NCBI GenBank assembly: GCA_963701855.1
Contig: CAVPBK010000005.1
Coordinates: 64,001-128,000 of the forward strand
From: Nitrospirota bacterium
Lineage (GTDB): Bacteria > Nitrospirota > Nitrospiria > Nitrospirales > Nitrospiraceae
Length of the DNA: 64,000 bases
Reading direction: 5' to 3'
The translations under genes were made by a program, and so were the position numbers. Shown here in pieces: positions 8,882-62,969 of this stretch. Positions within the stretch are counted from its first letter, which is position 1. Every line of letters begins with the position of its first letter. Below the pieces are notes generated by a model that saw only the letters and a list, made by a program, of their open reading frames with translations, did not search any database and was not told where the DNA came from.

Positions 8882-10572
8882 GAAGCCTCTCCCTTTTGCC
8901 GAGCGGTTCGCCGGTTGTAAACCAGTGCATACACGCAGGGGACGAAGAACAGGGTGAAGATGGTAGCAACGAGCAAGCCGCCGATGACGGCGCGGCCTAG
9001 CGGCGCATTTTGGGAATAGCCCGTCGCCATGGGGAACATCCCGAAAATCATGGCTAAGGCAGTCATGAGCACCGGGCGGAAGCGAGTCGTTCCGGCTTCG
9101 ATCGCAGCCCGTAGCGCGTCGCCGTGTTCTTGCAGCCGCTCGCGCGCATAGGACACGACGAGGATCGAATTGGCGGTCGCCGTGCCCATGGTCATGATGG
9201 CGCCCGTCAGTGCCGGCTCCGACAGCCGCGTATGGGTCAGGAACAAGGCCCAGGCGATGCCCGCCAGTGCGCCGGGCAGGGCCGTAATGATGATGAAGGG
9301 ATCGAGCCAAGATTGGTAATTGACGGTGATCAGCAGATAGACCAGCACGATCGCGGCAAGCAGTCCTAAAATCAGCTCGGCATACGCATCATACATCAAT
9401 GAGGCCTGGCCATGGATTTCGACCTCCGCACTGCGTGGTTTCTCGCCTTCCATGCTCTTGGCAACCTGCTCGACATCCGCCAGCACCGCGCCGAGGTCGC
9501 GATCTTCAACGGATACATAGATGTCGAACAGCGGCATAATATTCCCGTGCGTGACCACGCCCGGCGTTCCCTCCGGTGTTAGTGTGGCCAAATTGCCGAG
9601 CAACTGGACCTCACCATCCGCCATGTCGTTCGAGGAATCGACCGGGATGGTCTTGAGACTATTGATGCTGTTGATCTGCGACTGCGGTGTATAGACATTG
9701 ATCAGGTACGACATGCCGGTACTGGGATCGAGCCAATAGATTTGATCGACCTGTTGGCTTCCGGCGGTTGTCATGAGAAGATTTTCGGCCATCTCCTTCA
9801 CGGTTCTGTTGACACCGAGTCCGAACGTGCGGTTGCCTTCGACCATGACGGTCGGTGTGCGCATCGTCTGCTGGACCACCACGTCCACGGCGCCGGGGAC
9901 CTGGCGAAACTTGTCGGCCAATTTACGGGCATACTCGTAGCTGGGGTAAATGTCCGGGCCGTTGACCTGCACGTCGATCGGCGCAGGCGCGCCGAAGTTA
10001 AGAATTTTTGCGGTCAGATCGGACGGCTGGAACGTGAATTCGGTTCCCGGATAGCGTTCCTTCAACCCCTGGCGGATAATTTTTCGGAAGTCCCACACCG
10101 GCGATTTTTCATTCTTCAAGAGGATCGTCAGGTCACAATCCTGAGGGCCGATCGTCGGCGTCGGAATGAAAGCGAGGTTATGCGGTCCGACCGGCAGACC
10201 ACAATTGCTGACGATGTTTTCAACTTGACCTGGCAGTAACTCCTCAATGCTTTCGGAGACGAGCGTGGCAATGCGCCCTGACACTTCGATCCGCGTCCCG
10301 AGCGGCGCTCGCATGTGCATCTGAATGACCCCCGACCTGATCTCAGGAAAGTAATCGCGTCCGAGGAAGAAAAAGAGAGACAATGAGGCCAACGCGATGG
10401 CCAGAGAAATCGTGACAAAGATGCCGCGACGGGCGATCGCCTGTTCGAGCAACAGACCATAGCGCTCGCGGATCTGATTGAAGCGGCGTTCGAACCCCTT
10501 CTGAAAGCGGACAAAAGGGTTCCGCGAGGGTTTAGCGCCCGGCTGCTCCTGCTGTTCCTGCGGCTGCGACAT
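8878..10572 (-). CDS. RND permease (AcrB family), C-terminal half
   Basis: TM7, porter domain, TM8-12 with NSILVV and RFRPVLMT; own ATG preceded by GAGGAG. Confidence 0.8.
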   Translation of the reverse strand: MSQPQEQQEQPGAKPSRNPFVRFQKGFERRFNQIRERYGLLLEQAIARRGIFVTISLAIALASLSLFFFLGRDYFPEIRSGVIQMHMRAPLGTRIEVSGRIATLVSESIEELLPGQVENIVSNCGLPVGPHNLAFIPTPTIGPQDCDLTILLKNEKSPVWDFRKIIRQGLKERYPGTEFTFQPSDLTAKILNFGAPAPIDVQVNGPDIYPSYEYARKLADKFRQVPGAVDVVVQQTMRTPTVMVEGNRTFGLGVNRTVKEMAENLLMTTAGSQQVDQIYWLDPSTGMSYLINVYTPQSQINSINSLKTIPVDSSNDMADGEVQLLGNLATLTPEGTPGVVTHGNIMPLFDIYVSVEDRDLGAVLADVEQVAKSMEGEKPRSAEVEIHGQASLMYDAYAELILGLLAAIVLVYLLITVNYQSWLDPFIIITALPGALAGIAWALFLTHTRLSEPALTGAIMTMGTATANSILVVSYARERLQEHGDALRAAIEAGTTRFRPVLMTALAMIFGMFPMATGYSQNAPLGRAVIGGLLVATIFTLFFVPCVYALVYNRRTARQKGEAS

Positions 10573-12055
10573 GGTGGCTCCTCATCATATATATCGCCAT
10601 AGTCGGCACCAGCGTACGCGATAGGATGAAAGAGGCAAGCATCGCGATGATGATCGCCTCCGCCATGGGTTTGAACAGGTAGCCGGCGACGCCGCCGAGA
10701 TCGAAGAGCGGGAGCCAGACGACCGCGATGCAGAGGGTGGCGACGAGCGTCGGCACGACGATCTGATTGGCGGCGTCGATGATGGCCTGCTCCAGATCTT
10801 TGCCCATTTCGATGTGGCGGTCGATATTTTCGATCATCACGGTCGCATCATCGACGAGAATGCCGACGGCCAGCGCCAACCCGCCCAAGGTCATGACGTT
10901 GATCGTCTCTCCGAGCAGATGCAGGCCGATGATGGCGGTTAGAATGGACAGCGGGATCGAGGTCCACACGATGACCGTGGCTCTCCAGGAACCGAGCAGC
11001 AATAACACGATGAGGCCGACCAGCGCGCCGGCGGTCAGCATTTCGTGCAGCACGTCCGAGATCGAATCCTTCACGAAGGTCGAGGCGTCGTCAAGGAGCC
11101 TGATCTCCACTCCCTCCGGAGAGATTTGCTTGGCGCGCGGGATCATCTTTTTTATCCCATCGACCACGTCGAGAGTCGAGGCCTCCGTGCTCTTCATCGC
11201 GATGATGATGACGGTCTGTTTCCCTTTCACCAGCACGGCGTTCTGTTGTACCCGGCCCATGAGGCGCACTGTGGCCACGTCGCGCAGGTAGACGAACGCA
11301 TTGCCTTCCCGCTTGATCGGAATATCGTTGAAATGTGCAATGTCCAACGGTGACGCGTTCGTCAGGACCACCCAGTCGGTCTGCTTGATCTTGATGTCGC
11401 CGGACGGCAACACCATATATTGTTTCATGAGGGCATCGTGGATGTCCGACGGGGTGAGATGCCGGGCGAGCAACTTCTGTTGATCGAGGTTGACCATGAC
11501 CTGCATGTCCTGCCCCCCGTATGGATGCGGGAGGACGATCCCCGGTACCGTCACGAGTAGAGGGCGGATTCGCATGTAAGCGAGGTTATAGAGTTCCGCG
11601 GGCGTCATGTGGTCGGAGCTGATTTGGAGCATGGCCACCGGGATAGAAGATGGCGCGAGACGCATGACCATGGGCGGAGAAATATCGGGGGGGAGAGCCT
11701 TGACGACGTTCTGCGCAATGCCCACGATATCCGCTTCGGCTCTGGCCACATCGACTCCGTCCTGGAGATAGATGTTGGTGATGCTGCTGCCGTTGTAGGA
11801 ATGGCTATGGATATATTTGATGCCCTCGACCGTCGAGGTCAAAAAGCGTTCGAATAGATACGTGATGCGCCCTTCCACCTGCTTTGGGATCATGCCGGAA
11901 TAGATCCAGACCACGGAGGTGACCGGAATCGTGATATTCGGAAAGACGTCGGTCGGCATGTGGAGCAACATCTTGGTGCCTAGTATAATAATAAGAATGG
12001 ACATGACGACGAAGGTGTAGGGTCTGCGGAGGGCAATGAGAACGATCTGGTTCAT
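10532..12055 (-). CDS. RND permease (AcrB family), N-terminal half
   Basis: MNQIVLIALRRPYTF start; TM4 GILVDDATVMIENI; ends shortly after TM6, out of frame with the C-half. Confidence 0.8.
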   Translation of the reverse strand: MNQIVLIALRRPYTFVVMSILIIILGTKMLLHMPTDVFPNITIPVTSVVWIYSGMIPKQVEGRITYLFERFLTSTVEGIKYIHSHSYNGSSITNIYLQDGVDVARAEADIVGIAQNVVKALPPDISPPMVMRLAPSSIPVAMLQISSDHMTPAELYNLAYMRIRPLLVTVPGIVLPHPYGGQDMQVMVNLDQQKLLARHLTPSDIHDALMKQYMVLPSGDIKIKQTDWVVLTNASPLDIAHFNDIPIKREGNAFVYLRDVATVRLMGRVQQNAVLVKGKQTVIIIAMKSTEASTLDVVDGIKKMIPRAKQISPEGVEIRLLDDASTFVKDSISDVLHEMLTAGALVGLIVLLLLGSWRATVIVWTSIPLSILTAIIGLHLLGETINVMTLGGLALAVGILVDDATVMIENIDRHIEMGKDLEQAIIDAANQIVVPTLVATLCIAVVWLPLFDLGGVAGYLFKPMAEAIIIAMLASFILSRTLVPTMAIYMMRSHHVAAAGTAGAAGR

Positions 12056-12253
12056 GCGTGAAGACTCCAACAGATTGTGCGATGTTGATTCTCCGAGACG
12101 TAGCTCACTTTCATAAAGCTCAGTTTTGGTTGGATTTTGAGTAGCCTATGCCGCATGCCGACCGGCCAGCCTTCAGCCATTGGGAGTCTGAATCGGATAG
12201 CGGAATAATTTTGAGACGCTAATTTCATGTAACGGATCATGCGCAATATGCCT

Positions 12254-20737: not shown

Positions 20738-21975
20738 TGGTCGGCCCCCTGATTTTAGGACCAATCTGAGGGAGCGTTTCCGGCATCCTGGCCCCCAGGA
20801 TGGGGAAGGAGGAGGCCATGAAACGGACACGATTCAGTGTCGAGCAGATTGTGGCGGTACTCACGCCGGCGGAGAGGGGACCCCCCGTGGCCGACCGCAT
20901 CCGCCCTCTCGGGATTGCGGAGCAGACGTGCTCCCGGTGGAAGCCGCGGGATGCGGGACTGGAATCGGAACAGGTGCGGGAGTGCAAACCGCTGCAGGAC
21001 GAGAACCCCAAGCTGACGCGCGTGGTGGCGGACTTGTCGTTGGACAAAGTCAGGCTGCAGGACGTCCTCGCAAAACAAGTCTACGGCCCTCGCGGACGCG
21101 GAGTGTGGTGACGTCTCTGTGCCCCGCGTATGCGGTGCGTGAGCGGCGCGCCTGCCGAACCGTCCGCGGTGCGAGGGCCCCCTACGACTATCGGAGTCAG
21201 CGCGATCCCCGCCCCGCACTCCGGCCGCGGCGCAGGGAGATGGCCCAGACGCGGGTCCGGTACGGGTATCGAAACATTCGGGGGCGCCTCAATCGGGACG
21301 GGGGGGCTGTGGGCAAGAAGCTCGGGTCTCGTCTCTCCCGAGAAGAAGGCCTGAGGCTGCGTCGCCGGAGCCCCCGGCGGCGAAAATCGGTGGTGCCCCG
21401 AGTGCACCGGCCGACGGTAACGAGACCGCAGGACGCGTGGCCACGAGACGGTGTGGCGGATCAACTGGTCGAGGGGCGCCGATTTCGCGCCCGCACCGGC
21501 AGCGCTGTGTATACGCGCGAGGGTGTGGCCATTGAGGTGGGCCAGCGTCTTCGCGGCGCGCACGTCGTGGCGGTGTTGACTCGGCGCAACCTCCATCGAG
21601 GCACGCCGAGGAGGCGCTTCTGTGACAACGGGAGTGAGTTCAGGAGTCAGCGAATGGACCGCTGGGCGTATCACAACACGGTCTCCATCGACTGCTCTAG
21701 ACCAGGCACGCCGACGGACCATGCGCACGTGGAATCGTGCCATGCGACGGTGTGACGGGAGGGCCTGAATGCGCACGGGTTCGAGTCACTGCGGGAGGCT
21801 CACGACCGGATCGAGGCCTGGCGGCGTGAGGAGAACGGGAGTCGGCCTCACCGGGCGCTCCAGGCTCGCACGCCCGAGGAATTCGCTAGGGCCCACGCGG
21901 AGAATCAGCGCTGTGAGCCCCGCATCACGGCGGGAAACGCTCCCTAGCAATGGCACAAAATTAAGGAGCCGACCA
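20738..21975 (+). mobile_element. Heavily mutated IS3-family element (pseudogene)
   Basis: IRs TGGTCGGCCCCCTGATTTT and (rc) TGGTCGGCTCCTTAATTTT; degraded OrfA (20818-) and OrfB with DNGSEF; slippery site disrupted; stop at 21753. Confidence 0.85.
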
Positions 21976-22539: not shown

Positions 22540-22653
22540 GACGGAACCTCCTTGTTTGTGATTGTGTTGTAGGACAGAACGTGTGTGTATGAGCTTCTCC
22601 TCCACTGAAATGTGAACTTTCTCAGTGATCCTCTTTCTCTACAGTACTTCTCG

Positions 22654-22881
22654 TCAGTACGGCTTTCCCTGCATGGCTTCCGGCTGAGTTCGCTGATGCC
22701 ACTGGTTCGCCCACTTCATGATCTCATCCTTTTGATCGCCATACCGTTCCTGGGCTTTGCCGACAAACTTGTCATAGTTGCCTTCGATCTGCGTCAAGTC
22801 ATCATCGGTAAACTTTCCATACTGTTTTTTCAGCTCGCCTTTGAACTGCATCCATTTTCCCTTGAGTTGATCCGCGTTCAT
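22654..22881 (-). CDS. csbD: CsbD family general stress protein
   Basis: MNADQLKGKWMQFKGELKKQYGKFTDDDL...GKAQERYG; GGAGGAG RBS. Confidence 0.9.
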   Translation of the reverse strand: MNADQLKGKWMQFKGELKKQYGKFTDDDLTQIEGNYDKFVGKAQERYGDQKDEIMKWANQWHQRTQPEAMQGKPY

Positions 22882-22994
22882 GGTGGCTCCTCCTGTGTGA
22901 GATACGCTGTCTCCGTTTTCTATCGATCTGGTCCCTTCATCTCCACACTCGCTCTTCCATTATTCAAACGACAGAAAAATGGTCATGCAGCCGT

Positions 22995-25962: not shown

Positions 25963-27376
25963 TGGACTGACCCCCTAGATTGAGACACGGCGAATTGGCA
26001 CACTTGACACACGAAAGGGGGTGGCAGGTGGCCAAGAAACGCGTGGGCAAGTTTCCGAAGGCTTTTCGGCAGATGGCCGTCGAGCGACTGAACCAGTGCG
26101 AGAACATCGTGGCACTCGCGAAGGAACTGGGGATCAGTCGGCGACTGCTGTATATGTGGCGCGAGAAGCTTGAGCCGGTGGCGAGTGGCAACGGTCCCCC
26201 AGCGACTTCGCGGGAATCGACCCTGCGTCACGAGGTGAGTCGCCTGAAGCGGGTGTTGGCCGAGAAGGTCTTGGAGGTGGATTTTTCAAAGGGGCCTTGC
26301 ACACCGTCGAGGCGCGACGCCAGCGGAGCGGAAAAGCTGGCGCGCAGGCCTGGACGCCCACATCCGGGACGTGATGTCGAGGCAAGGCTCATTGAGTATC
26401 GCACGGATGTGTCAGCTGGCGCAGGTCAGCCGGGCGGGTTTTTATCGGTCGCTGCACGCACACCAGCCCATGGAAGAAGAGATGGCGGTGCGGTCGGCCA
26501 TTCAGGGGATCGCTGTCACCCACCGGCGTCGGTATGGCTACCGGCGCATCACAGCGGAACTCCGTCGGCGCGGCCTCCTAGTCAACCACAAACGAGTAGT
26601 GCGGCTCATGCGCGAAGACAACCTGCTGGCGGTCCAGCCACGGGCCTTTGTGGTGACGACCGATGCGCAGCATGACCTGGAGGTGTATCTGAATCTCGCC
26701 CATCGACTGACGTTGACCGGGGTCAATCAACTCTGGGTGGCGGACATCACCTACATTCGGTTGAAGGGCGAGTTCGTCTACTTGGCGGTGCTGCTCGATG
26801 CGTATTCCCGCAAGGTCGTGGGCTGGGCGCTGGACCGCACGCTGGCCGCCCGATTGCCGATCGCGGCGCTGGCGCACGCCCTTGCGGAGCGGCACCTGCC
26901 GCCGGGGTTGGTCCATCATTCCGATCGCGGCGTGCAGTATGCCTCCGAGGCGTACGTGACCCTGCTGCGGACGCACCACATGATTCCGAGCATGAGTCGG
27001 CCGGCCAACCCCTATGACAACGCCAGTTGTGAGCGCGTCATGAAGACGCTCAAGTGGGAGGAGATCTATGCCAATACCTATCGAGATCTCGACCACCTGC
27101 GCGCGAACCTTGCGGCGTTTATCGAGCAGTACGACAATCGCGACCGGTTGCATTCGGCGCTGGGCTACCACTCACCGGACGAGTTCGAGCAGGTGGCCAG
27201 TTCGGCGACCCCTGCGACCGGAACCACCATGCGGTTTTTCAGGCCTCGAGCGCTCGCTCGAGCGGCATCATCAGCCAGGGATCAGGCTGAAGCAACAGAG
27301 GCGGGGTGAGCAGCAACATGCATTAAACTACCAGGTGTGCTAATTCCAAACTGTCTCAGTAGAGGGGTTCACCCCA
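25963..27376 (+). mobile_element. IS3-family insertion sequence
   Basis: 25-bp IRs TGGACTGACCCCCTAGATTGAGACA and (rc) TGGGGTGAACCCCTCTACTGAGACA; OrfA from about 26028 and OrfB 26371-27309. Confidence 0.9.
26371..27309 (+). CDS. IS3 transposase OrfB
   Basis: YGYRRI, WVADITY, HHSDRGVQY, NPYDNA, LHSALGY. Confidence 0.85.
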   Translation: MMSRQGSLSIARMCQLAQVSRAGFYRSLHAHQPMEEEMAVRSAIQGIAVTHRRRYGYRRITAELRRRGLLVNHKRVVRLMREDNLLAVQPRAFVVTTDAQHDLEVYLNLAHRLTLTGVNQLWVADITYIRLKGEFVYLAVLLDAYSRKVVGWALDRTLAARLPIAALAHALAERHLPPGLVHHSDRGVQYASEAYVTLLRTHHMIPSMSRPANPYDNASCERVMKTLKWEEIYANTYRDLDHLRANLAAFIEQYDNRDRLHSALGYHSPDEFEQVASSATPATGTTMRFFRPRALARAASSARDQAEATEAG

Positions 27377-27711: not shown

Positions 27712-29088
27712 ATGGCACGAGCAAAAATATCAGAACCGTCTCGCATGCGGTCCAAAGTTGCCACGATTGAAGAACTCACGCGTGGCGTCGGAGAGCTCCA
27801 GGAGTTCCTCGCACAGGTGGAAGACCTTGGTCGTGAGGGATTCCCTTATCTCGACGCAGCCAGGGCCAGAACAGAGCTGCAATTCCGTGAATGCATTCGC
27901 CGCACGTTTGGTGAGAGATCCCCGGAATTCCAAGAGCATCGTCATCACAGGCTTCTCATGGACACCCCTGAGGAAACGCGGCAGAGCATCGCCCTGATCA
28001 AGACGTTTATTGCCACACTGGAACAGAAAAAACTTAACTTGCAAGGAGGCCCACCTCCTCAACAAATCTCAGCAACGCCAGTGGCTCCACCAATGCCTAC
28101 GCGTCCACAGATGACCATAGTGCCGGCATCGATTTCGACGGTTCAGGTGACCATGACGCAAACAGGACCGATTACGCCACCGCCGGTGGCAACGAACCTC
28201 AACCGTGCTCCAGCCACCGCCGCATCGAATCTACCTCAGCCCCCTCTGGCCCCCGCAGTTTCTTTGCAGCAGTCTGAGCCCCTGAGCCCATCTATAACTC
28301 GGTCTGAACCATCACCGATTTCACCAGCCCCGATTGCGACGGCAGTGCCACATGCCCCGCTGCAACCGGTAGATCTAGGTGCTCAGGAGCCCCAGCCACC
28401 GCCAGCACAAGCGGCACAGATTGCGCAGGTAGATGTATCCCATGTCGTTGGGCCACAGCAGACACTACAACCTGAACCGGAGTCCATCGTGCATCCAATT
28501 CCTTCCGTCAGCCAACAGCCTAAGACACAGGAAACGCCTCCCGTCCTTCCGCATCTGCAGCCTCCTTCCTCGATGTCGATCGGCTCCTCTTTTCCCCAGG
28601 AGGCCGCATCGCAGCTTGCTCAGAACGGATCAACCCCTGTCGAACTTGTGAAAACACTCTGTCATCGATTCCACTCCGTTGCCCGGCAGCTGCGACTCCG
28701 CGGGGAGCATCGAGCCACGTTAAGTGTGGAAGACGAGATCGATGTGCAGGATCTGCTGCATGCATTGCTGCGAATCCAGTTTGACGATATCGATACAGAG
28801 GAATGGACGCCGAGTTATGCCGAAGGAGCCCCTCGCACAACATTTCTACTGAACGACAATCAGCTTGCGGTGCTCGTCAAAAAAACGCGAAATGGTCTCA
28901 CAGCCAAAGACCTCACTGAACAATTACGGATCGATACCGAGCGCTATCTCACCAAAAGCCGATGTACGTCGCTCTTGTGCTTTATTTACGACCCCGATGG
29001 CCGCATCGGTAATCCGAGGGCTTTCGAAACCGCGCTCACCACGGTGAACGGTTCCTTGACCATTGGTGTACTGATTGCTCCGAAATGA
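27712..29088 (+). CDS. Protein with N-terminal helical domain, long Pro-rich linker and C-terminal PD-(D/E)XK (DpnII/MboI-like) fold
   Basis: C-terminal EDEIDVQDLLHALL...EEWTPSYA...LCFIYDP.GRI.NP; catalytic acidic residues appear substituted. Confidence 0.75.
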   Translation: MARAKISEPSRMRSKVATIEELTRGVGELQEFLAQVEDLGREGFPYLDAARARTELQFRECIRRTFGERSPEFQEHRHHRLLMDTPEETRQSIALIKTFIATLEQKKLNLQGGPPPQQISATPVAPPMPTRPQMTIVPASISTVQVTMTQTGPITPPPVATNLNRAPATAASNLPQPPLAPAVSLQQSEPLSPSITRSEPSPISPAPIATAVPHAPLQPVDLGAQEPQPPPAQAAQIAQVDVSHVVGPQQTLQPEPESIVHPIPSVSQQPKTQETPPVLPHLQPPSSMSIGSSFPQEAASQLAQNGSTPVELVKTLCHRFHSVARQLRLRGEHRATLSVEDEIDVQDLLHALLRIQFDDIDTEEWTPSYAEGAPRTTFLLNDNQLAVLVKKTRNGLTAKDLTEQLRIDTERYLTKSRCTSLLCFIYDPDGRIGNPRAFETALTTVNGSLTIGVLIAPK

Positions 29089-32469: not shown

Positions 32470-34714
32470 TTACCCTAGCGGACGGGTGGAACGCAAGGCA
32501 GCCCCAAGCTGCCGCAGACGTTCATCACCCAACATCTCATCCACACGAACCGCATACTTCCTGGTCCAGTTCGGATGGGTATCGACCGTTCCGGGAAGAT
32601 TGGTTTGCGAAAGTTCGTCCAAGCCGTCTTCGAGATTTGCCAGGACGAGACAGGACGGTGTGCGGGCCAGGTAGAGATGGATCGCTCGGCAGAGTTCAGT
32701 CGTCATGGCGGGAGCGGTGGCTGGGTCCTCCGTTACGCCAGGTGGCAGAAGGTTTTCCCGTTGAAGCGCACAGAGGATGTGTGACTTGTCGCGCCGACGC
32801 TCTTCCCAGGCGCGCCAGCGCGTTTCGTCATCTGGAAAGGCGCCCAATTCCGCCCGTACGAGTAGATCCTCGCCGGACCAAAATCCGGTGAGCGTCGGCA
32901 AGTCGTGCGTCGTGGCTACAGCCAGGGATTGTGCGGGATAGTCGCCGGGCGGCTTCATGGCGCCGTCTGCGCCGCGCTCGAAGTAGAACACACGATACGA
33001 CAGTACTCTCGCCTTCGCCAACTGTTCTCTGACCCAATCGGGGACCGTGCCGAGGTCTTCTCCAATGACTAGGGTTTTGGATCGAACGCTTTCCAATGCC
33101 ACGATCGCCAACAAATCTTCAAAGGGGTACTGCACATAGGTGCCTTCGGATGCAGGCCTCCCGCGCGGGATCCAGAAGAGCCGGCAGAACGCCATCACAT
33201 GGTCCAATCGAATGGCTCCGCCGGATCGAAAGTTGTTGTGAAATAGCTGGATCATCAGCTCATAGCCACTGGCGCGTAGCGCGTGAGGATTGATCGGAGG
33301 TAAGCCCCAATTCTGTCCCGCTGGCGCAAATGCGTCAGGCGGGGCGCCGCAGTCGGCTCCGAACGCCAACACCGATTGATAGATCCAGGCTTCAGCCCCA
33401 TTCCGATCGGCGCCGAGAGCCAGGTCATGATAGAGCCCGATCGGCATTGGCAGATGCTCCGCTGTACGTCGGACCTCGTTCAGCTGTTCGCTCGCCACCC
33501 ACTGAAGGTATTGAAAGAAGCGAATGCGTGTCCGGTGGCGTTTCGCATACTCACGAACCGGTTGGCCAGGCGTCAACAATTGCTTGGGCCAATCGTGCCA
33601 AGAGACCGGCGAGGATTGAATCAGTCGGCGTTCTTCTTCCAACGTCTGGAAGGTGGCATACAACTCAAGCGGTGTGCCCTCAGCCTGGATAAACCGCTCC
33701 AAGAACAAGCCGCGAGCTGTGCGGGGTTGGAGATTTGGCTCCTCTCCGCTGTAGGCATCTATGAGGAATTGTTGGTAGGCCAGATCGAGCATGGTGCGCT
33801 TGACGGTTGCAATGGCACCGTAGTCTACCCGCCGACTTTCTCGCAACGCCTGAAGCTTGGTTTGAAACTCGGGAGCATGGAACTGTTGCTGCGCCTTCTC
33901 CGATCCATAAAACTCCGGCAGCCGCTCGAGATCGATATAGAGTTCATTGAGGTATAGTCGGCTGTCCGGCGCATAGGGACTAATGTGATAAGGTAGAGTA
34001 TTTCGCAGTGCGTGCAACGGATTGAGCCCGATGAATCCGGCGCCGAGCTCTTTCCCAGCCCACTCCACAATATGACCGAGATCGGTGAAATCGCCGCACC
34101 CCCAGTTACGGTCGGAGGACAACGAATAGAGTTGCAAGGCCAGTCCCCACAGCCGCTGGTTCCCCTCAAGCGACGGCGGAACATAGCACTGGCGTGGAGC
34201 CACAATGACACGCATCGTTCCCACGTTTCCCCCGACCAAGCCTTCGGCCCGCATCATCAATTTGTAGTACCCGAGCGAGAGACCATTCGGAGCCGGTATT
34301 TCGATACGCACATGCCGTTGACCTTTGAGAAAACGGACCTCCATGGCGGAAAGCCCAGGCCCTGCCTGTCCTTCTTGCACCATGGTGTTCGCTTCATCGA
34401 AGATCTGCCACGCCACTACGACGGACCCTTCTCTTCCGTCCTCGATCGCGAGATAACAGGAGACAGAAGGTCCCGTTTCATTGTCACGCAGGATCTGCAC
34501 TGCGCTGCAGGGGTGTTGCCACGGTGCCTCATCCCAATCTTGCAGCGCTTGTGTCAGCGATTCGGTCGAATCGACCGAAAAGCCCATGGCAGTCAGTATG
34601 GCGCGCCGGGTGTCATCGGAGGTGAGGTGAAAATTACCGGCTATATCGTAATAGTCAGTCGCGATACCGGCACGTTCGGCGAGTTTGGCAAGAAGGGTCC
34701 GTCTGGTCTTGCAT
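32470..34714 (-). CDS. malQ: 4-alpha-glucanotransferase (amylomaltase, GH77); apparent frameshift near the start
   Basis: WGCGDFTDL, SPY.P, DLALG, GQNWG, RLDH, GEDLG, THD, NLPGT. The frame continues upstream of 34587 (LLAKLAERAGIATDYYDIAG) but the ATG at 34714 is off-frame by one base. Confidence 0.85.
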
Positions 34715-38715: not shown

Positions 38716-39663
38716 TTAGGGCTTCCAGGGCGTCAGTGGCATCAGCGGAGCATCCTTGGCTACCGGTGTAATCGTCAGCGCGGCAATGGCTCCACGAAGG
38801 GCTCCAGTGAGCGAATGCGTCACAATCGGATAGACCCCGGGTGATTCGGAGACCAAGTCGAATGTGGCGGCGCTTCCGGGTCCTACGACATAGGTTTGTA
38901 CCCCTGTGAGTTTGTTGGCAGGGTTCCCGCTCTCGTAGACGTTGTCCCAAATCTCGCCGATCGGGTGGAGCGAGGAAAACTCGTTGGGGCCCGCGTTCAC
39001 AAAATAGATCCGGACCCGCTCATTCGGTTTCGCCTCTAGCGCTTCCGCGCCGATGAAGAAGGGATGATACTTGAAGATCCCTCCGTTGAAGACCGTATAG
39101 TCGAACTTCCGAGCGAACATGGCCTCGACATCGTCGGGGTTCTTCCAGAGCTCAGATTGGACCAACAAAAACTCCCGGTCCGCTTTCGGCCAGACCTTCG
39201 GATCCTTGGGATCGACGATAATCGCGCCGAACATGCCGCGCGCGACGTGCTGAATCATGGGTGCTGCGCCGCAATGATAGAAAAACACGCCGGGCTTCTT
39301 CGCCACAAAGGTGAAGGAAATGGTTTCTCCCGGATTGATGGCCCGGTAGTTCTTCAGGAAATCGATTTCCGCCGCATGGAAGTCCATGGCGTGTGGAAAA
39401 ACATTGGTCTTGGGATTCTCCAGCGTGAAGTTGACAGTGTCACCTTCCGTGACCCGCACGGCCGGCCCCGGCATCTGGCCGTTGAACGTCCAGGCCTTAT
39501 ATTTCGTTCCCGTTCCTTCAATCACGATTTCCGTTTCGAGCGCCGTCATCTTGACGTCATGGGTCTTCGCGGATGCCTCGGAGGGCAATCCCATCAATCC
39601 GGCAATCGCAAGGGCCGTGGCCCCTGCGATGGCCATGAGTTGAGGTGATCGTCTTTTCATCAT
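38716..39663 (-). CDS. nirK: Copper-containing nitrite reductase
   Basis: HAMDFH, YHC...QHVARGM, SSLHPIG and VTH copper ligands; signal peptide. Confidence 0.9.
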   Translation of the reverse strand: MMKRRSPQLMAIAGATALAIAGLMGLPSEASAKTHDVKMTALETEIVIEGTGTKYKAWTFNGQMPGPAVRVTEGDTVNFTLENPKTNVFPHAMDFHAAEIDFLKNYRAINPGETISFTFVAKKPGVFFYHCGAAPMIQHVARGMFGAIIVDPKDPKVWPKADREFLLVQSELWKNPDDVEAMFARKFDYTVFNGGIFKYHPFFIGAEALEAKPNERVRIYFVNAGPNEFSSLHPIGEIWDNVYESGNPANKLTGVQTYVVGPGSAATFDLVSESPGVYPIVTHSLTGALRGAIAALTITPVAKDAPLMPLTPWKP

Positions 39664-39853
39664 GGTTGGACTCCTCTCTGAAATGGTTGGGCGAACTTCT
39701 CCGGGCAAATGTGCAACTGGTCTTTTCTTATGTGAAGGGTCTCACTGGCACTTCGTCTGTATGTGAGGAAAAGAATAACAGAGCAAAATTGTCTAGTGTA
39801 TATCGTAGCGTTCGGTTAAGAATCAAGCCCTTTGTTAGTCCCAAATGAGCCTG

Positions 39854-41047
39854 TGACCCAAAACCCGAAAAGTAGGCCAGGGGGAGCTTGAGGAAATGCC
39901 CCGCGACGTGGTCTTCTTAACTCAGAAGGAGGACCCGACGAGGGCACGACGACGAGGGTATATCGAAGAGCAGCTCCTGGCGGCCGTGCGACACGCGGAG
40001 GGCGGGACGACCGTAGTCGAGGGCTGTCGAGAGGTGGGGATCAGTGAGCAGACGTTCTCCCGCTGGAAACGAACGTACGTAGGGCTGGGGCTGAGCGAAC
40101 TCCGCGAGCTCCGGCAACGCCGAGAAGAGACCACGAAACTGAAGCGGCTGGCGGCCGATCTCTCACTTGATCGGCATAGGTTGCAGGAGATGGTGCGAAA
40201 AGAGCGGTACGGCCTCGGGACCGGCTGGCGCTGGCCCGCTGGGCGCACACGACCTACCAGGTCAGTGAGCGCCGACTCACGGTCGTGTTGCGGCGGGAGG
40301 GGGGCACGTGAATGCGAAACGGATCTATCGGCTGTATACGGACGAAGGGCTGACGGTGCGGACGAAACACCGCACGAAGGCCGCAGGCCGAGCCCGTGTG
40401 CCGCAGGCCCGAGCCACGGCGCCGAACGAGCGGTGGAGCATGGGTTTTATGAGCGAGCGTGTGGCGAATGGCCGCTGGGTTCGGATTCTGACCGTCGTGG
40501 ACCAGTTTACACGGGAGTGTCTGTGCTTGGTGGCGGATCAGTCGCTCACCGGAGAGACGGTGGCGGAGGCGGTAGAGCCGGTGGTGATGCACCGGGGCGC
40601 ACCGCGTGCGCTCACCGTGGACAACGGCAGCGAATTTTCCAGCCGCGTCATGGATGCCTGGGCCTACCGGCATGGGATCCCGCTGGATTTTATTCGACCG
40701 GGGAAGCCGGTGGCGAATGGCTTCATCGAGAGTGTCAATGGGCGGCTCCGTGATGAGGGTCTGAATGTGGACGTGTTCTTCACGCTGGACGAGGTGCAGG
40801 AGAAATTGGCGCGATGGCGGACGGACGATAACCTCCTACGCCCGCACAGTGCGTTTCAGGATCAGGCGCCAGTCTCTTTTGCGGCGAAGTGGTTCGCCGC
40901 CCGGCCGACGGCTCCGGCCTCTTCCGAATTGCTGGAGCCACTCACGTGAGCGATGCGAGCGTTGTAACGCTGCATGGGCGGCTCACACCGATCACGCGCA
41001 GGCCAATTCCTCAGGGCTCGATCGGTCTACATTCGCGGGGCGGGTCA
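39854..41047 (+). mobile_element. IS3-family element, copy B (relative of 1621-2942), internally deleted with start codon lost
   Basis: Same first 32 bp as copy A; right end GGGCGGGTCA; ATG->AGG; about 125 bp missing after GTGAGCGCCG. Confidence 0.9.
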
Positions 41048-41736
41048 GAAAGCCACAACATCGATTTTCATGCGGTCACTGGACCGGGTGGTGGAGCAGC
41101 AAGCCTCAATACCGACCAGGGGAGGAAAGTGAGTTACGATTTAAGGCCCTCAATGCTGGCCTCCATTTCTATCACTGTGCCACCGCATCGCCATCCATTC
41201 CTGAACACATTGCGAATGGAATGTATGGCGGGATCTTAGTTGAGCCGGTTGGCGGGCTTCCCAAGGTAGACAAAGGGTTTTATGTCGTGCAGAGCGAGTT
41301 TTACACCAAGCCTGGCAAGAAGGGCGAGACCTTGGAATTTTCGTTCGAAAATGGGTTAACGGAGCACCCGTTACATGTGGTGTTTAACGGCATGGCGGGT
41401 TCGCTTATCAAGAATCTTCTGATGGCCAAGGTGGGCGACACCATTCGAATGTATTATATCAACGCAGGACCCAATCTGACCGAAAATTGGCACGTCATCG
41501 GCGAGATATTTGACAGGGCGTACCCCAAGGGTTCCTTGATTATGCCTCCATTGCAGAACGTCCAAACCACTGTCGTGCCGGCTGGTGGCTCTTCCATGGC
41601 AGAGTTTAAGATCGAGGTGCCTGGAACCTATATCAATGTGGACCACGCAATCTTCCGCATCGCAAAAGGCGCCGTTGGCCTGATAAAGGTGGAAGGTGCG
41701 GAGTAATCGGACATCTACAAGAACCTCCTGAAGTAA
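41048..41736 (+). pseudogene. nirK: Second nirK (AniA-type), 5'-truncated by IS3 and frameshifted
   Basis: HNIDFHAVTGPGGGA, then after a frameshift YHCAT...HIANGMYG, WHVIGEIFD, VDHAIFR; premature stop at 41704. Confidence 0.85.
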
Positions 41737-43189: not shown

Positions 43190-44455
43190 TTAGCTTGCTG
43201 AGGCCCTCGTGAAGACCGGGATGATGTTACCAGCAATACTGTTGATGTGGCGATTGCCGGATTCGTCCCAAGCCATGATGAGACCTCCGAAGCGCTGATC
43301 AGGATCGTGGACCAGGTCCATAAGTCTCTGTATTTCCCAGAGCGAGTCTCTCGAGTCGAGCTTGACCTCTTTGCTTTCGCCCGGGTTGATTGGTGACTCA
43401 TCCTCGATATGCAAGCCGTCTGTTGCCATAATCTCCGCTGGGTAGTCCGGGTCCATGTTGTTGGCTACGCCAACCTTGTTGAGGAACCGGATACCTGCTG
43501 TTGTGAACTCTCCAATCCTGAGTGGCTGTTCACCGCTGTTGGTCACCTGCAGGGTCATGCGCAGGGCGCGACCAGGAACATCGTAATCTGCGGCGAGCAC
43601 CTTTACCGTAAGATCCGACTTCAAATGAGTCGCCTTGATCTTTGGTTCACCCGCCTGGAGCGGGATGGTATACGGATACTGACTGTCCGTAACGAAGAAA
43701 CCAATGGCAATCAAAACAAAGACCACTCCTAGCATCCCAAAGGCCACTACGCGATCAACTGGATCGTTCAACAGTGCGTCTCCACCCTCTTGGGCCAACA
43801 CACGCGCACGAATGAGGAACATTGGTCTGATCATGAACCAGCCGATCCAGGCAAATCCAAGCCCACCCCATAACAAATGCCAGAAGAGCCCGGCCGCTAG
43901 GCCTGCGGTTTCTGTATCGATGGTTCCTCCAACCAACAGCTTTGCTGGGTTGGTGAAATCTTTATAATTGCCTGTGATATCCATCCAGCCTCCAGGTCCG
44001 GCGATAGGCCCGGCCCCATTGACTGCCAACATCGGGTGGATGTGGTGGTGGCCAGGTAACCGGCCCCTCAGTTTAATCACGTATTCGTAGTCCCCACCGA
44101 TCTCCACCGGGCCCGAGGTGAACATCGGAACCCCGTTCACTTTCGAGCTGAGACGTGTGAACACCGAACTTGGGCTCCCCACGTTGATGAACGTACGATT
44201 GGGCTTGACGACGGCCCGAGGCCAGTCTTCCGATATGTGCAACTTCCCCGACAACATCGCTTCATCGTTGACGGCGGTTTTCGACGGATTCCACCTTGTG
44301 TCGTACCATTGAGCGGTACGCATCCGCAGGAACGGTTCCTGAGAGCGCTCCCCGTGGGCGGCAGCGGGTGAGGCATTGAACACCAGGGTGAGCCCCAGCG
44401 TCGCCATCCCGAGGGAGCCAATCACGCACAATTTGAATATGTTTTTAGCGTTCAT
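43190..44455 (-). CDS. amoB: Ammonia monooxygenase subunit B
   Basis: Signal peptide, then HGERSQEPFLRMRT; HHIHP copper site; RIGEFTTAGIRF. Confidence 0.97.
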   Translation of the reverse strand: MNAKNIFKLCVIGSLGMATLGLTLVFNASPAAAHGERSQEPFLRMRTAQWYDTRWNPSKTAVNDEAMLSGKLHISEDWPRAVVKPNRTFINVGSPSSVFTRLSSKVNGVPMFTSGPVEIGGDYEYVIKLRGRLPGHHHIHPMLAVNGAGPIAGPGGWMDITGNYKDFTNPAKLLVGGTIDTETAGLAAGLFWHLLWGGLGFAWIGWFMIRPMFLIRARVLAQEGGDALLNDPVDRVVAFGMLGVVFVLIAIGFFVTDSQYPYTIPLQAGEPKIKATHLKSDLTVKVLAADYDVPGRALRMTLQVTNSGEQPLRIGEFTTAGIRFLNKVGVANNMDPDYPAEIMATDGLHIEDESPINPGESKEVKLDSRDSLWEIQRLMDLVHDPDQRFGGLIMAWDESGNRHINSIAGNIIPVFTRASAS

Positions 44456-45345
44456 GATTTCCCTTCCGCTAATGTAGCTCCGCCCGACAATCTAGGTGCA
44501 ACTCCATCCGGCGTACCATGTCTCGCTGCATACTCATCTGTACCGACGATCATGATGTCGTTCTTCCGTGACATAACGCCACGTCTACCCTTAACCCAAA
44601 AGAATGCTTGCCCGACAAAGTGCCCCACTTGCCACCAAATGGTGAACATCAACATGGAGATGAAGGCCGAGAAGAACGCGGAAATCCAGACGGTGTGGCC
44701 GCCAAACGTACGCAGCGATCCCACCTCGATGATCCGGATATATTCAGGTGTCCCCGTACGGACATAGGTGAATCCCATGTAGTCTGCCAGAGATAGCAGC
44801 TGACCATCCACCACCATCGGTTGATGGCTGTACCCGAATAGGGCATAGTTTGTCGGATTAAACATCATCGCGAACGCCCATACCCCGAATATCGCTGTGA
44901 GCATCCAACTCCGAGTCAGCAACAGGGTACAGTCGAGGATCAGCGCACTGGAGACCATGGTGGCCGGCATGACGAAGTTTGCCGGAAAGTTGGCCCACCA
45001 GTACCAGGCAAACAGAACCGTGATCCATTTCCCGACAAGGAGCCCCGTGATGCTCAACGTGGCACCAAACGGTTGCCGATAGAATGTCCAGAAGTAGTAC
45101 ATGATCGCTCCGGGATACATGACCTCTACAATTGGTGTGACCGTCACCCAAAACTGCCGGTCCTTCCAATCGATCCAGAAATCCCAGTCTCCTGCAAGCA
45201 GGTCGAAGTGCATATGAAAGGTTGCGAACACCCCTAAATACGCAATCGGAAGAAAATACACCGCGTCTATCATTCTTGACAGCTTGACGCCTTCCGGCGG
45301 AAGCTTGCTGGCTTTGATAATCTCAGCGGTTCTAAACAGTGCCAT
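44452..45345 (-). CDS. amoA: Ammonia monooxygenase subunit A (comammox clade B type)
   Basis: HMHFDLLAGDWDFWIDWKDRQFW and YVRTGTPEYIR; clade-B primer-site motifs present. Confidence 0.97.
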   Translation of the reverse strand: MALFRTAEIIKASKLPPEGVKLSRMIDAVYFLPIAYLGVFATFHMHFDLLAGDWDFWIDWKDRQFWVTVTPIVEVMYPGAIMYYFWTFYRQPFGATLSITGLLVGKWITVLFAWYWWANFPANFVMPATMVSSALILDCTLLLTRSWMLTAIFGVWAFAMMFNPTNYALFGYSHQPMVVDGQLLSLADYMGFTYVRTGTPEYIRIIEVGSLRTFGGHTVWISAFFSAFISMLMFTIWWQVGHFVGQAFFWVKGRRGVMSRKNDIMIVGTDEYAARHGTPDGVAPRLSGGATLAEGKS

Positions 45346-45466
45346 TTGTCCCCTCCTCGCTCGTTCTGAACATCTGTTCCCTCCCTAAATTTCCAACTGG
45401 CTGGGCGGCCCCGCTCTTTCCGGCATCCGGAGTACGGGGCCAGCCCGCCAAAGTCGACGGCACGAC

Positions 45467-46264
45467 TTAGTACGGGATCACGTGCAAGCAGTCCTTGCTC
45501 TCGTTGTTCCAGACCACATCGCACAGGTTCGACATGCGCGCGACGATCTGCGCCGCGACGCCGCCCGTGCCCCCGAACAATCCGCACCAGCCCAGAGTCA
45601 CAAAGCCCCAGTGCAATGGCGCCGCAAAGAGTTCATCGACGAACCAGAACGCATGCCCCCACTCATTGAGGCCCACGTTGGGAAGAATCATCATCGGCCC
45701 CACGATCGCCCCCACCAAGGGGAACGACACCGCCTTGCTGAACTGCGGCAGCCGGGTCATGGCATACAGATAGCTCGCCACGCCACAGGTGATGTACAAC
45801 GGGAAGGTGAAGTAGAAGGCAATGATATGGCTGGCCGTGAAGCTGGTGTCGCGGATGATCACCTGGTGCCACGACGCATCCTGCTCCAAAGTGTACGAAC
45901 CCGCCCAGTACACGCCGAACACGTATACCGCAAGCCACATCATCCAATAGAAGTACCGCTTGAGCTCGGTCTTGGGATCCACGTTGGCAATGTTGCGATC
46001 CCGGGTACTCCATATCCACCCAAGGGTGGAGGCCGAGAAGATGATGTTGGAAATCACGTTAAAGCGCCACAGCCCCATCCAGACATTTTCGAACTCCGGC
46101 GTCATGGAGTCCAAGCCGTGGGAATACCCAAAGACGCGCTGAAAGACGACCTCGGCCCCTACCGCCGCCAACATCGTAAACCAGCCGATCTTGAGGGGCC
46201 GGGAATCGTACCAGAGCGACATGTCGTAGCCCCGATCCGCCCCTCCCCATGTTGTACTAGCCAT
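45467..46264 (-). CDS. amoC: Ammonia monooxygenase subunit C
   Basis: [49 protein letters not shown]. Confidence 0.97.
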
Positions 46265-46451: not shown

Positions 46452-47455
46452 ATCTATGCACTTAACTCCAGTTTATCGCCTACTATTTATGAGGTGGCTG
46501 CAGTCAGCCTCGAGTAGGGGATAGGCTCAATCGCGACGGTTTGTGCGACAAGTTTGTAGAACAGTTTCCAGCGGTATCTCGACGTTCGACGATTGAACCG
46601 AAATGTGAATTCGTCGAGATAGGAGTCCAGTTGCTCACGGGACAATGCACCTTTATGGGTACCCATTAACCAACGTTTCAATAAGGAAGACACCTGGTGC
46701 ACGCGGGGTAGCAAAGCCGACGTTATTTTGCCGCTGGTGTTGATCAGACGCGGTTGGTGCTTGAAGCCTTCCTGCTTCAAGCCCGCATAGGCCTTCCATC
46801 CATCTGTAACGACCACGGAACCAGGCTCGACAGCGTATTTCACGAAGGCGACGAGCGAGCTCGGAGAGGCAGAGGGAATCCGTCGCAGGCAGATGCGTCC
46901 AATCCCCTTCCCGTCGACCTGTGCCGCGATCGCCACCAGGGCCTTGCTTCCCATGTGCCGACGGCTTCGTCCAGCCTCGACGCCCACCACATATGTTTCG
47001 TCCACTTCAATCTGGCCTCCCAGGCTGTCCCAGCCAGGCCGCACTACTGCGCGTCGCAGTTTCTGCAGCCACAACCACGCCGTCCTGTAACTGCCAAAGC
47101 CCAGTAGGCGCTGTAGCCCCAAGGCGCTGAGCCTATGTTTCTGATCGGTCATCCACCACATGGCTCGGAACCAGTCCTGCAGAGGAAGGCGGGTTCGATG
47201 AAAGATCGTTCCAGCCGTTACTGAGGCTTGGTATCCACACCGGCGGCACATCAAAAGGCATCGTGTGGTTGTCCAACTGCCGCTGGTCATGCATTGGGGG
47301 CAACAGAACCCGGTCGGCCACCGCAGCCTGGCCAGATAGGCACGGCAGGCACCTTCTGTAGCGAAGCGCTGTTCGAACTCGGAAAGGGTTCGCATATAGT
47401 CCTCCACGGTATAACTCCAGCACGTCTGGCGCGAACTGGAGTTAAGTGCATAGCC
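46452..47455 (-). mobile_element. IS1595-family element
   Basis: Perfect 20-bp IRs CTATGCACTTAACTCCAGTT at 46454-46473 and 47434-47453. Confidence 0.9.
46487..47407 (-). CDS. IS1595 transposase
   Basis: Zn ribbon CPQC...CRRC, SVTAGTIF, EVDETY, TDGW, YLDEFTFRFNRR. Confidence 0.9.
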   Translation of the reverse strand: MEDYMRTLSEFEQRFATEGACRAYLARLRWPTGFCCPQCMTSGSWTTTRCLLMCRRCGYQASVTAGTIFHRTRLPLQDWFRAMWWMTDQKHRLSALGLQRLLGFGSYRTAWLWLQKLRRAVVRPGWDSLGGQIEVDETYVVGVEAGRSRRHMGSKALVAIAAQVDGKGIGRICLRRIPSASPSSLVAFVKYAVEPGSVVVTDGWKAYAGLKQEGFKHQPRLINTSGKITSALLPRVHQVSSLLKRWLMGTHKGALSREQLDSYLDEFTFRFNRRTSRYRWKLFYKLVAQTVAIEPIPYSRLTAATS

Positions 47456-61259: not shown

Positions 61260-62969
61260 ATGACCAATAAATTCTGGTTGAGATGTGGCCTGGTAGTTTG
61301 CGGGGCGTTGCTTACGGCAACAGCTCAGGCAGACTTCCCCAGCGTCCCCAAGGAAACCTACGAGGCGCTGAACCTTGATCGGTCCGCCAGCCCCAAGCAA
61401 TTGCATGAGGCGTTGACGAAGCGCTTCGTGGATCCAGGCAGAGGCGCGGGGAAAGGGCAGTACGGCCAGTATTGGGAGCCGATCCCAATGAGCAAGTATT
61501 TCGATCCAATGTCGTTCTACAAGCCCCCGACATCGGTCAAGGAAATCGCGACACGCGAGCAGTGCGTGAAATGCCACACCGATGAGTCGCCGGGGTGGGT
61601 GGAACTTTGGAAAAAGAGTGCTCACGCCAATCTTGACAAGATTCGCAAGCTTACCCCAAAAGACGACACTTTCTACAAGAAGGCGAAGTTAGAGGACGTG
61701 GAAAATAACCTTCGCTCGATTGGCAAGCTCGGACCAACAGAGAACTTGAAGGAAGTCGGCTGCATCGATTGCCACGTTGACATCAACACGAAGAAGAAGG
61801 CCGATCACCGGGTCGACCTGAAGATGCCCACTTCCGATGTGTGCGGCAACTGCCATCTACAAGAATATGCCGAGCGCGAGTCCGAGCGCGACACGATCTT
61901 ATGGCCGAAAAACCAGTGGCCGAGGGGCCGCCCGTCGCACGCGCTGGATTACAGGGCCAACGTCGAGACGGATATCTACGCCGGAATGTCGCAGCGCGAG
62001 ATCGCTGATGGCTGCACAATGTGCCACACCAACCAGAACAAGTGCGATAATTGCCATACCAGGCACGAATTCTCGGTGGCCAACTCCCGCAAGCCTGAAG
62101 CCTGCGGCACCTGTCACAGCGGCGCCGATCACAACAACTGGGAAGCCTACAACGGGTCGCAGCATGGGCTGGGGTACCAGGCCTCTAAAAATCAATGGAA
62201 TTGGAATGTACAGCTCAAGGATGCAGTTGCCAAGGGCGGGCAGCGCTTCCCTACCTGCCAGAGCTGTCATATGGAGTATCAGGGCAAATTCACCCACAAC
62301 ACGGTGCGTAAGGTTCGCTGGGCGAACTATCCCTTCGTGCCTGGCATTAGAGAACCTGTATTTGGCGAATGGGGCCAGAAGCGCCTGGATGCGTGGGTCA
62401 AGACCTGCACAACGTGCCACTCCGAGAGCTTCGCGCGCGCATGGTTGGAGTTTATGGACAACGGCACCTCTGAGGGACTCGATAAATACGATGAGGCGCA
62501 CAACGTAGTCCGTAAGCAGTATGACGCTAGACTCCTCACCGGTCAGAGGAACAACCGGCCTGCTCCTCCAGCGCCGGCTAAGGCCCAGTTCGACCAGTTT
62601 TGGCAGATCTACTGGTCGAAGGGCAACAGCCCTACAGCGATCGAGCTCAAGCTCTTCGAAATGGCTGAGGACCATCTGGTGCAACTGCACGTCAGTCTCG
62701 CGCACCAATATCCAGGGTTCACCTATACTGTCGGCTGGGCAGCGATGAACCGGGCTTATGTCGAAATCATGGACGAGGACACCAAGCTTAAGGAAAAGCT
62801 GATGCTGATGGAACGGGTGGCCAAACTCGAGCAGAGCAAGACCAGTAGCCTGCTGGATTTCGATAGCACGGACGGGAAGCTTACGCTCGGCAGCGTGGGC
62901 GGCGGATTGTTGCTGACCGGCACCCTCGCGCTCGCCGGATGGAGCAGACGCAAGAAGAACCAGCGGTGA
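61260..62969 (+). CDS. haoA: Hydroxylamine oxidoreductase (octaheme)
   Basis: Eight CxxCH motifs, RKVRWANYP, cross-link Tyr context GFTYTVGW, C-terminal TM. Confidence 0.97.

Follow-up and report, generated by a model that had tools for sequence, protein, structure and literature searches.

Four IS3-Family Copies in a Nitrospira-Type Region

The 64,000 nucleotides considered here (referred to as the window and numbered from its first base) come from a Nitrospirota bacterium of the family Nitrospiraceae and correspond to positions 64,001 to 128,000 of contig CAVPBK010000005.1 in GenBank assembly GCA_963701855.1. The window is a Nitrospira-type region containing amoCAB (43190-46264), ccm genes, and nirK, as well as a multihaem hydroxylamine-oxidoreductase-like gene (61260-62969), and the closest relatives of its host proteins belong to Nitrospiraceae or Nitrospirota. 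Within it lie four insertion sequence (IS) copies of the IS3 family: two related copies, A and B, a third and more distant relic, rel3, and a fourth copy from another subgroup. These copies carry, in unequal amounts, A:T>C:G transversions (read on one strand as A>C or T>G), which are called hits below and are the subject of this analysis.

Copies A (1621-2942) and B (39854-41047) are both on the forward strand and both extend from TGACCC to GGGTCA, the boundaries assigned to them in the initial annotation. IS3-type inverted repeats (5'-TG...CA-3') are present in A, B, and rel3. In copy A, which is only lightly hit, orfA (1708-2019) includes a slippery site (1965-1971) and orfB follows in the -1 frame (1971-2843). 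The A_AAA_AAG site of this copy is intact in the zero frame, and AAAAAAG is retained in all nine full-length outgroup copies aligned there. Copy A matches the Pfam families HTH_Tnp_1, HTH_21, rve, and rve_3. HTH_Tnp_1 is matched by orfA of all four copies and rve_3 by orfB of A and B, and rve is matched by orfB of A, B, and rel3 with bit scores of 82.5, 75.3, and 34.6, respectively, and also by the fourth copy. Copy B is dead, since its orfA start is AGG (39941-39943) where A has ATG at 1708, its slippery site has been lost through change to AAAAGAG (40198-40204), and it has deletions of 126 nt (junction at about 40272/40273) and of 1 nt (near 40297-40302). The L002 copy, from another genome, also has AGG for ATG at the start of orfA. 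In addition, the orfA stop codon after the slippery site has become TAC in both A (1975-1977) and B (40208-40210), lengthening orfA of A by 14 codons; this position is TAA in 10 of 11 aligned outgroup copies and TGA in one, and rel3 also has TAC at the equivalent place (about 21084-21086). No target duplications of 3-4 bp are found at A and B, the flanking bases differing between the two sides. Their absence fits old or rearranged copies and has no bearing on the family to which the element belongs.

Over 1194 aligned bases, A and B are 80.4% identical. When left unpolarised, their 234 differences show nothing remarkable overall: 111 are transitions, and the transversions comprise 34 A<>C, 32 G<>T, 50 C<>G, and 7 A<>T. 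Transitions are symmetric between the copies (52 vs. 59), whereas at A<>C or G<>T sites A or T in copy A is paired with C or G in copy B 49 times and the opposite arrangement occurs 17 times. The initial annotation had expected non-synonymous differences to be enriched in A<>C and T<>G rather than dominated by transitions, and this is the case: A<>C and G<>T together make up 37.5 of the 83.5 non-synonymous differences, with transitions at 28.5/83.5, compared with 19.5 of the 121.5 synonymous differences (Fisher P about 1e-5). The GC content is 67.0% in rel3 and 63.9% in B, against 56.2% in the window.

Polarised Changes in Copies A and B

A scan of genome contigs with orfB of copy A yielded 80 loci that supplied outgroups. 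The full-length Nitrospiraceae relatives are L052, L001, L002, and L003, with nucleotide identities to A of 86, 84, 82, and 79%, respectively. A partial copy, L045, was also recovered, as were more distant ones from other phyla. A change was polarised where the close outgroups L052, L001, L002, L003, and L045 were unanimous, and L014, whose 5' half does not align, was left out. By this measure, A:T>C:G accounts for 21/54 changes found only in B (16/31 non-synonymous, 1/15 synonymous), 4/33 found only in A, and 6/12 common to both copies (5/5 non-synonymous). The outgroup lineages give 4/33 for L002, 4/72 for L003, and 4/14 for the changes shared by L052 and L001. Taken together, the window copies have 31/99 and the outgroup lineages 12/119 (Fisher P=1.3e-4). 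An earlier count with L014 included gave 18/47 for B, 3/21 for A, and 1/51 for L003.

The hits in B were acquired at the same rate per target at non-synonymous (21/342) and synonymous (2/33) sites, 0.061 in each case, so they were not filtered by selection. At strictly invariant sites, 12 of the 22 changes in B are A:T>C:G. A baseline for orfB was also obtained from protein consensus across 78 of the 80 loci, two having been dropped for short matches. Here A:T>C:G accounts for 82.8/681 inferred changes in other phyla and 19.2/106 at other Nitrospira-type loci, compared with 12.5/22 for A and B together; L014 alone reaches 8.8/27.

The codon pairs from which the initial annotation argued are all present in the sequence. 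A Leu position is TGG in A (1753-1755) and GTG in B (39986-39988), a dicodon is ATG-GTG in A (1945-1950) and AGG-TTG in B (40178-40183), and, at the A coordinates given, the remaining A/B pairs are TAC/TCC (1825), AAG/ACG (1840), AAC/ACC (1897), GTC/GGC (1789), GAG/GCG (2607), and ACA/AAA (1834). The proposal that both Leu codons arose from TTG by T>G holds for TGG in A, the second position of which is T in 9/9 outgroups, but not securely for GTG in B. That codon, like the GTG of the dicodon in A, could reflect T>G or C>G because the outgroups are split between TTR and CTN. The AGG of the dicodon in B is polarised as T>G. Of the six further pairs, five result from A>C or T>G in B and one, ACA, from A>C in A; nearly all of the codon examples are therefore changes of the B lineage.

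The initial annotation also read the coincidence of changes at the same codons as a signal of independent action. However, 9 non-synonymous changes only in A and 31 only in B, distributed over 334 codons, lead to an expectation of 0.84 coincidences, and the one codon and one adjacent pair observed are at chance level. The related claim that the process acted separately on each copy after divergence is borne out by the private hits (21 in B, 4 in A), though six hits are common to both and the load is unequal. A real A:T>C:G-biased process has marked A and B, acting separately on them.

The six identical hits exceed the 0.6 expected (hypergeometric P=4.6e-6) and consist of TAA>TAC at the orfA stop, AAG>ACG at 2452, TTA>GTA at 2466, CAG>CCG at 2575, TTC>GTC at 2628, and TAC>GAC at 2721. 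The copies are mosaic, with the 3' part of A grouping with L052 (support 100) and not with B. A simple sister relationship of A and B was rejected: in trees built without L014 and L045 it receives a weak support of 62 on the whole alignment, and the middle and 3' parts contradict it. The Y>D hit at 2721 in A and 40827 in B falls in a block otherwise identical to L052, with differences between A and B no more than 5 bases away on either side. Either parallel hits or very short gene-conversion tracts are thus needed to explain it. In the 3' block, three hits in A are younger than a very recent split from L052-like sequence.

All four IS3-family copies have changes at the same two residues of orfB. 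The Phe next to the catalytic Glu (E-S-F) has become Val or Cys, and the Tyr of the Y-N motif has become Asp or Glu. The respective sites are 2628 and 2721 in A, 40734 and 40827 in B, 21738 and 21831 in rel3, and residues 223 and 255 of the fourth orfB.

The rel3 Relic, the Fourth Copy, and Public Relatives

The most heavily hit copy is rel3 (20738-21975, forward strand), a relic bounded by inverted repeats at 20738-20784 (starting TGGTCGG) and 21930-21975 (ending CCGACCA). Its orfA spans 20818-21111, and its orfB frame (21090-21945) has one TGA, at 21753, and no indels; the frame is open yet encodes many odd residues. In comparison with a consensus drawn from 33 of the 116 relatives found, rel3 orfB has 45 residue differences at 229 conserved positions, and 40 of the 49 inferred nucleotide changes are A:T>C:G. 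A nucleotide comparison is possible with a 193-nt fragment at the L052 locus, from which rel3 differs at 18 sites. At 15 of these the window has G or C and L052 has T or A, the remainder being one change in reverse, one transition, and one C>G. This fragment (L052:3978-4170), an internal piece of a rel3-type IS, has remained unmutated and is adjoined by an A-type IS, so nested IS insertions recur in the lineage.

The fourth copy (approximately 25970-27330, forward strand, with orfB at 26371-27309) was compared with a consensus of 150 representatives and shows five deviations at 137 conserved positions, four of them A:T>C:G. It is adjoined by a gene (27712-29088, forward strand) for a 458-aa protein with a DpnII/MboI-type restriction-endonuclease domain. 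The hit load is therefore graded across four copies of three lineages, rel3 being hit more heavily than B, and B more heavily than A and the fourth copy.

Hits extend along the entire element, with non-coding ends included, and affect both strands, with 40 T>G and 32 A>C among the 72 hits counted in three copies. Both types occur within single copies (15 A>C and 20 T>G in rel3, 11 and 16 in B). No sequence motif is found around the 72 hits: GGT is not dominant, and C precedes T at 31/72 against a background of about 30%. Nor are strand patches seen in runs tests of rel3 (14 runs vs. 18.2 expected, P=0.10) and B (P=0.58). Under the genetic code A:T>C:G can create a stop codon only from TAT or TTA, and for this reason the reading frames stay open.

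The same signature appears in public proteins of the rel3 family. The pool comprises 101 of the 116 proteins, those of at least 200 residues, and for 147 of its 989 unambiguous changes A:T>C:G is the sole possible class. Such changes predominate in a handful of proteins, the richest being P0041 (11/18), P0005 (10/14), P0044 (9/11), P0050 (7/10), and P0002 (6/8), compared with a highest share of 8/15 among the 12 NirK relatives richest in them. The same codons have been changed at different codon positions in different members, resulting in F>V or F>C, Y>D or Y>S, and N>H or N>T. P0005, P0041, P0044, P0050, and P0002 are full-length transposases carrying F>V/C, Y>D/S, W>G, L>R, and N>H/T changes, so hypermutated IS copies have been annotated as ordinary proteins.

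Host Sequences as Controls

The nearest control is a dead nirK remnant (41048-41706, forward strand), a second nirK copy that is cut exactly at the right end of B and whose frame is shifted near 41126-41140 and stops prematurely at 41704. The left flank of B is not the missing part of this gene but the sequence upstream of another nirK-like multicopper oxidase gene (38716-39708), which is intact. DNA has therefore been lost beside B. By the protein-consensus method, using 44 of the 120 relatives among the matches listed, the remnant (41140-41703) has 3.5/20 A:T>C:G and 8/20 G:C>A:T, whereas 13.4 hits would be expected at the rate of B (Poisson P=0.003). At positions kept by at least 43 of the 44 relatives, 0/9 changes are A:T>C:G, compared with 12/22 at the invariant sites of B (P=0.005). 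Ordinary changes, those other than A:T>C:G, number 9 in 229 codons of rel3 and 16.5 in 171 codons of the remnant (binomial P about 0.03-0.04), so rel3 does not look older than the remnant. Copy B has 15 ordinary non-synonymous changes in 334 codons.

Two further controls come from elsewhere in the window. MalQ (4-alpha-glucanotransferase; 32470-34714, reverse strand) was compared with a consensus of 63 of the 119 relatives among the matches listed. A:T>C:G makes up 9.2/52 of the inferred changes in this gene and 2.8/25 at a threshold of 0.9. Five codons from the canonical ATG of MalQ, at 34714, a short deletion shifts the frame, and the open frame restarts at 34587 to give 705 aa, where all 119 listed relatives have 745-771 aa. 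A small host gene (22647-22956, reverse strand), which we take from our own reading to be CsbD-like, also occurs at locus L001. Over 310 nt the two differ at 51 sites, of which 35 are transitions, and the A<>C/G<>T differences are balanced at 6 vs. 4. The excess of A:T>C:G is thus absent from the host DNA tested, a limited sample comprising the nirK remnant, MalQ, and the small gene.

Other features of the window include an IS1595-family transposase gene (46487-47407, reverse strand) beside amoC that looks intact; its relatives in the plasmid collection share at most 50% identity and were judged too distant for a consensus. In addition, an RND (AcrB-type) transporter gene is split by a frameshift into overlapping frames at 8878-10572 and 10532-12070 (reverse strand), either as a pseudogene or through an assembly indel.

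Probable Element-Confined Hypermutation and a Possible Mechanism

The reading we favour, with a probability of roughly 0.55, is that the IS3-family copies underwent hypermutation that was almost purely A:T>C:G and was confined to the elements. To our knowledge, no well-known route other than misincorporation of oxidised dGTP (8-oxo-dGTP), familiar from mutT biology, leads to a spectrum so nearly pure for A:T>C:G, and the A:T>C:G specificity of mutT deficiency is well established. The hits may likewise have arisen by pairing of 8-oxo-dGTP opposite template A. MutT hydrolyses 8-oxo-dGTP and so cleans the nucleotide pool, and MutY excises A opposite 8-oxoG (PMC12273949). Confinement to the elements would follow if the mutagenesis were tied to DNA synthesis that takes place only on the element, and copy-out during IS3 copy-out-paste-in transposition is the most parsimonious candidate for such synthesis. 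Copy-out would re-synthesise one strand of the element each time a transposase, whether its own or one acting in trans, fires on the ends. If this synthesis involved a low-fidelity polymerase, or escaped mismatch repair and pool sanitation, hits would accumulate within the inverted repeats and spare the DNA beyond them. The same reading has two variants, inseparable here, in which the hits came in one burst when a copy was born or were made by a host system directed at repeats.

Several points weigh against element-confined hypermutation. The host controls amount to one dead fragment with 20 changes, one gene at the protein level, and one 310-nt block, the chief limitation being that the polarised comparison does not extend to synonymous and intergenic sites of the host. 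The junction with nirK could have formed through a later deletion mediated by the IS end, in which case the remnant may have been alive while B was being hit, and the 9.2 changes in MalQ are not far from what an episode of the size seen in B would leave after purifying selection. The model also gives no account of hits that recur at the same residues in independent copies. Furthermore, one copy-out event should hit one strand, whereas A>C and T>G both occur in each copy; together with the lack of strand patches, this means that the model needs many rounds or synthesis of both strands. Finally, a Pfam scan of 53 open reading frames (ORFs) identified no polymerase, mutT-related, or defence candidate in the 64-kb window.

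Alternative Explanations

Some of these points would be accommodated by the most serious alternative, a past genome-wide mutT-like episode, in which 8-oxo-dGTP sanitation was lost or overloaded and of which rel3, already dead, and then B are the fossils, with selection having purged working genes and nirK having died later. This is unlikely, though it deserves the most attention. The spectrum is exactly that of mutT deficiency, and the near-exclusive A:T>C:G changes such an episode predicts are found in rel3 (40/49) and among the private non-synonymous changes of B (16/31). Different times of death would fit the graded loads of rel3, B, and A, purging would leave roughly the 9.2/52 found in MalQ, and host synonymous sites were outside the comparison. 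However, an episode of this kind should affect all neutral DNA alike, and in the limited sample of nirK, MalQ, and the small gene it did not: the nirK remnant at the very end of B has 3.5/20 where 13.4 hits would be expected, and the small gene lacks asymmetry (6 vs. 4). The order of death that the explanation needs is contradicted by the ordinary changes, as rel3 and B look no older than the nirK remnant. In public sequences, moreover, single IS copies carry the signature, whereas the NirK relatives examined do not.

It is improbable that the hits were instead acquired in another host or replicon with an A:T>C:G bias, the copies arriving in the window by segment transfer or mobilisation in trans. 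Insertion sequences are abundant in the window, around amoCAB and hao, the copies combine lineages that also occur in other Nitrospiraceae genomes, and a related transposase could move dead copies whose ends are intact, all of which would suit such an origin. However, four copies from three IS3 lineages would have had to pass through the biased host while the nirK flank did not, and the three hits in A post-date its split from L052-like sequence. The explanation also shifts the question to another host without answering it.

A sequencing or assembly artefact, to which repeats are prone in being hard to polish, is more improbable still. In Illumina two-colour chemistry, T is read as G and A as C when the green channel is lost, which matches the class of change, and the split RND pump gene and the 5' frameshift of MalQ may be indel errors. 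Yet the changes are at consensus level, with up to 40 in about 850 nt of rel3, and adjacent host sequence is not enriched; no GGT or other context motif is present, as noted above, and read errors would not respect IS boundaries. The signature is also carried by independent public sequences, including L014 (8.8/27), P0041, P0005, and P0044.

Ordinary divergence of two old IS copies, in which the A/C and T/G pairs would have been picked out by chance among 234 differences, can be set aside as the least credible explanation, since, even though transitions are the largest unpolarised class (111/234) and the same-codon coincidence is at chance level, the asymmetry between A and B (49 vs. 17, with transitions at 52 vs. 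59), the polarised excess (Fisher P=1.3e-4), and the 40/49 in rel3 all oppose it.

Comparison With Known Systems

Element-confined hypermutation is a classic form of genome defence in eukaryotes, as exemplified by repeat-induced point mutation (RIP) and APOBEC, and we know of no case in which it is an established fate of bacterial DNA transposons. The pattern in the IS3-family copies resembles fungal RIP in that transposon copies are killed by one class of point change with few indels while single-copy neighbours are spared, repeats being hit and unique flank spared here in the four IS3-family copies and the nirK remnant, respectively. However, RIP produces C:G>T:A in a dinucleotide context during the fungal sexual cycle and lowers GC, in contrast to the motif-free transversion seen in this bacterium, which raises GC. 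APOBEC3-type hypermutation of retroelements offers a parallel in being element-confined and tied to a replication intermediate, with individual copies hit heavily and most not. It differs in arising by deamination of C on single-stranded cDNA, which gives strand-specific G>A, whereas the present element is a DNA transposon with A>C and T>G on both strands.

In chemistry, the nearest system is the mutT mutator, which is likewise nearly pure for A:T>C:G, acts on both strands, and has no strict motif. A mutT defect acts genome-wide, however, and the host DNA tested here is without excess. Diversity-generating retroelements (DGRs) also direct mutagenesis to adenines, but they replace A by any base, on a single strand and within a short variable region, and are adjoined by a template repeat and a reverse transcriptase. 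By contrast, A>C and T>G occur here on the same strand across whole elements of 1.2-1.3 kb, and no reverse-transcriptase domain was detected by Pfam among the 53 ORFs of the window.

IEE is described as an error-prone PrimPol that acts on copy-out-paste-in IS elements given an active transposase (bioRxiv 10.1101/2023.06.07.543989). This PrimPol-helicase resembles the proposed activity in being a host-borne error-prone polymerase that needs an active transposase and works on circle-forming IS families, IS3 included. The known outcome of IEE action is excision by microhomology and not base substitution, and no IEE-like gene occurs in the 64-kb window. IEE nevertheless provides a precedent for an IS-associated polymerase.

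A full-text literature search, followed at title and abstract level, returned neither a bacterial counterpart of RIP nor a description of A:T>C:G hypermutation in bacterial insertion sequences. As element-confined hypermutation itself is known from RIP and APOBEC, what would be new here is its occurrence in a bacterium, on DNA transposons, and with transversion chemistry.

Implications for Nitrospira and for Insertion Sequence Decay

More tentatively than for the four copies themselves, it is possible that Nitrospira-lineage bacteria subject IS3-type transposons to element-confined hypermutation, either as a RIP-like defence based on transversion and triggered by repeats or by transposase, or as an inherent cost of copy-out in the presence of an oxidised nucleotide pool, by which copies are killed while their frames stay open. 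If confinement holds genome-wide, it would represent a new way in which bacteria, or transposition itself, disarm insertion sequences, or alternatively a record, made in nature, of the mutagenesis that oxidised nucleotides cause at one class of DNA synthesis. Confinement would also explain the full-length yet crippled public transposases rich in Gly, Arg, Pro, and Ala, which keep their length because A:T>C:G rarely makes stop codons, and it would allow the decay of IS copies to be dated and classified by a simple signature in the sequence. The finding is also relevant to the ammonia-oxidation gene region of comammox-type Nitrospira, which is rich in insertion sequences and in which amoCAB, hao, and nirK are neighbours of these copies.

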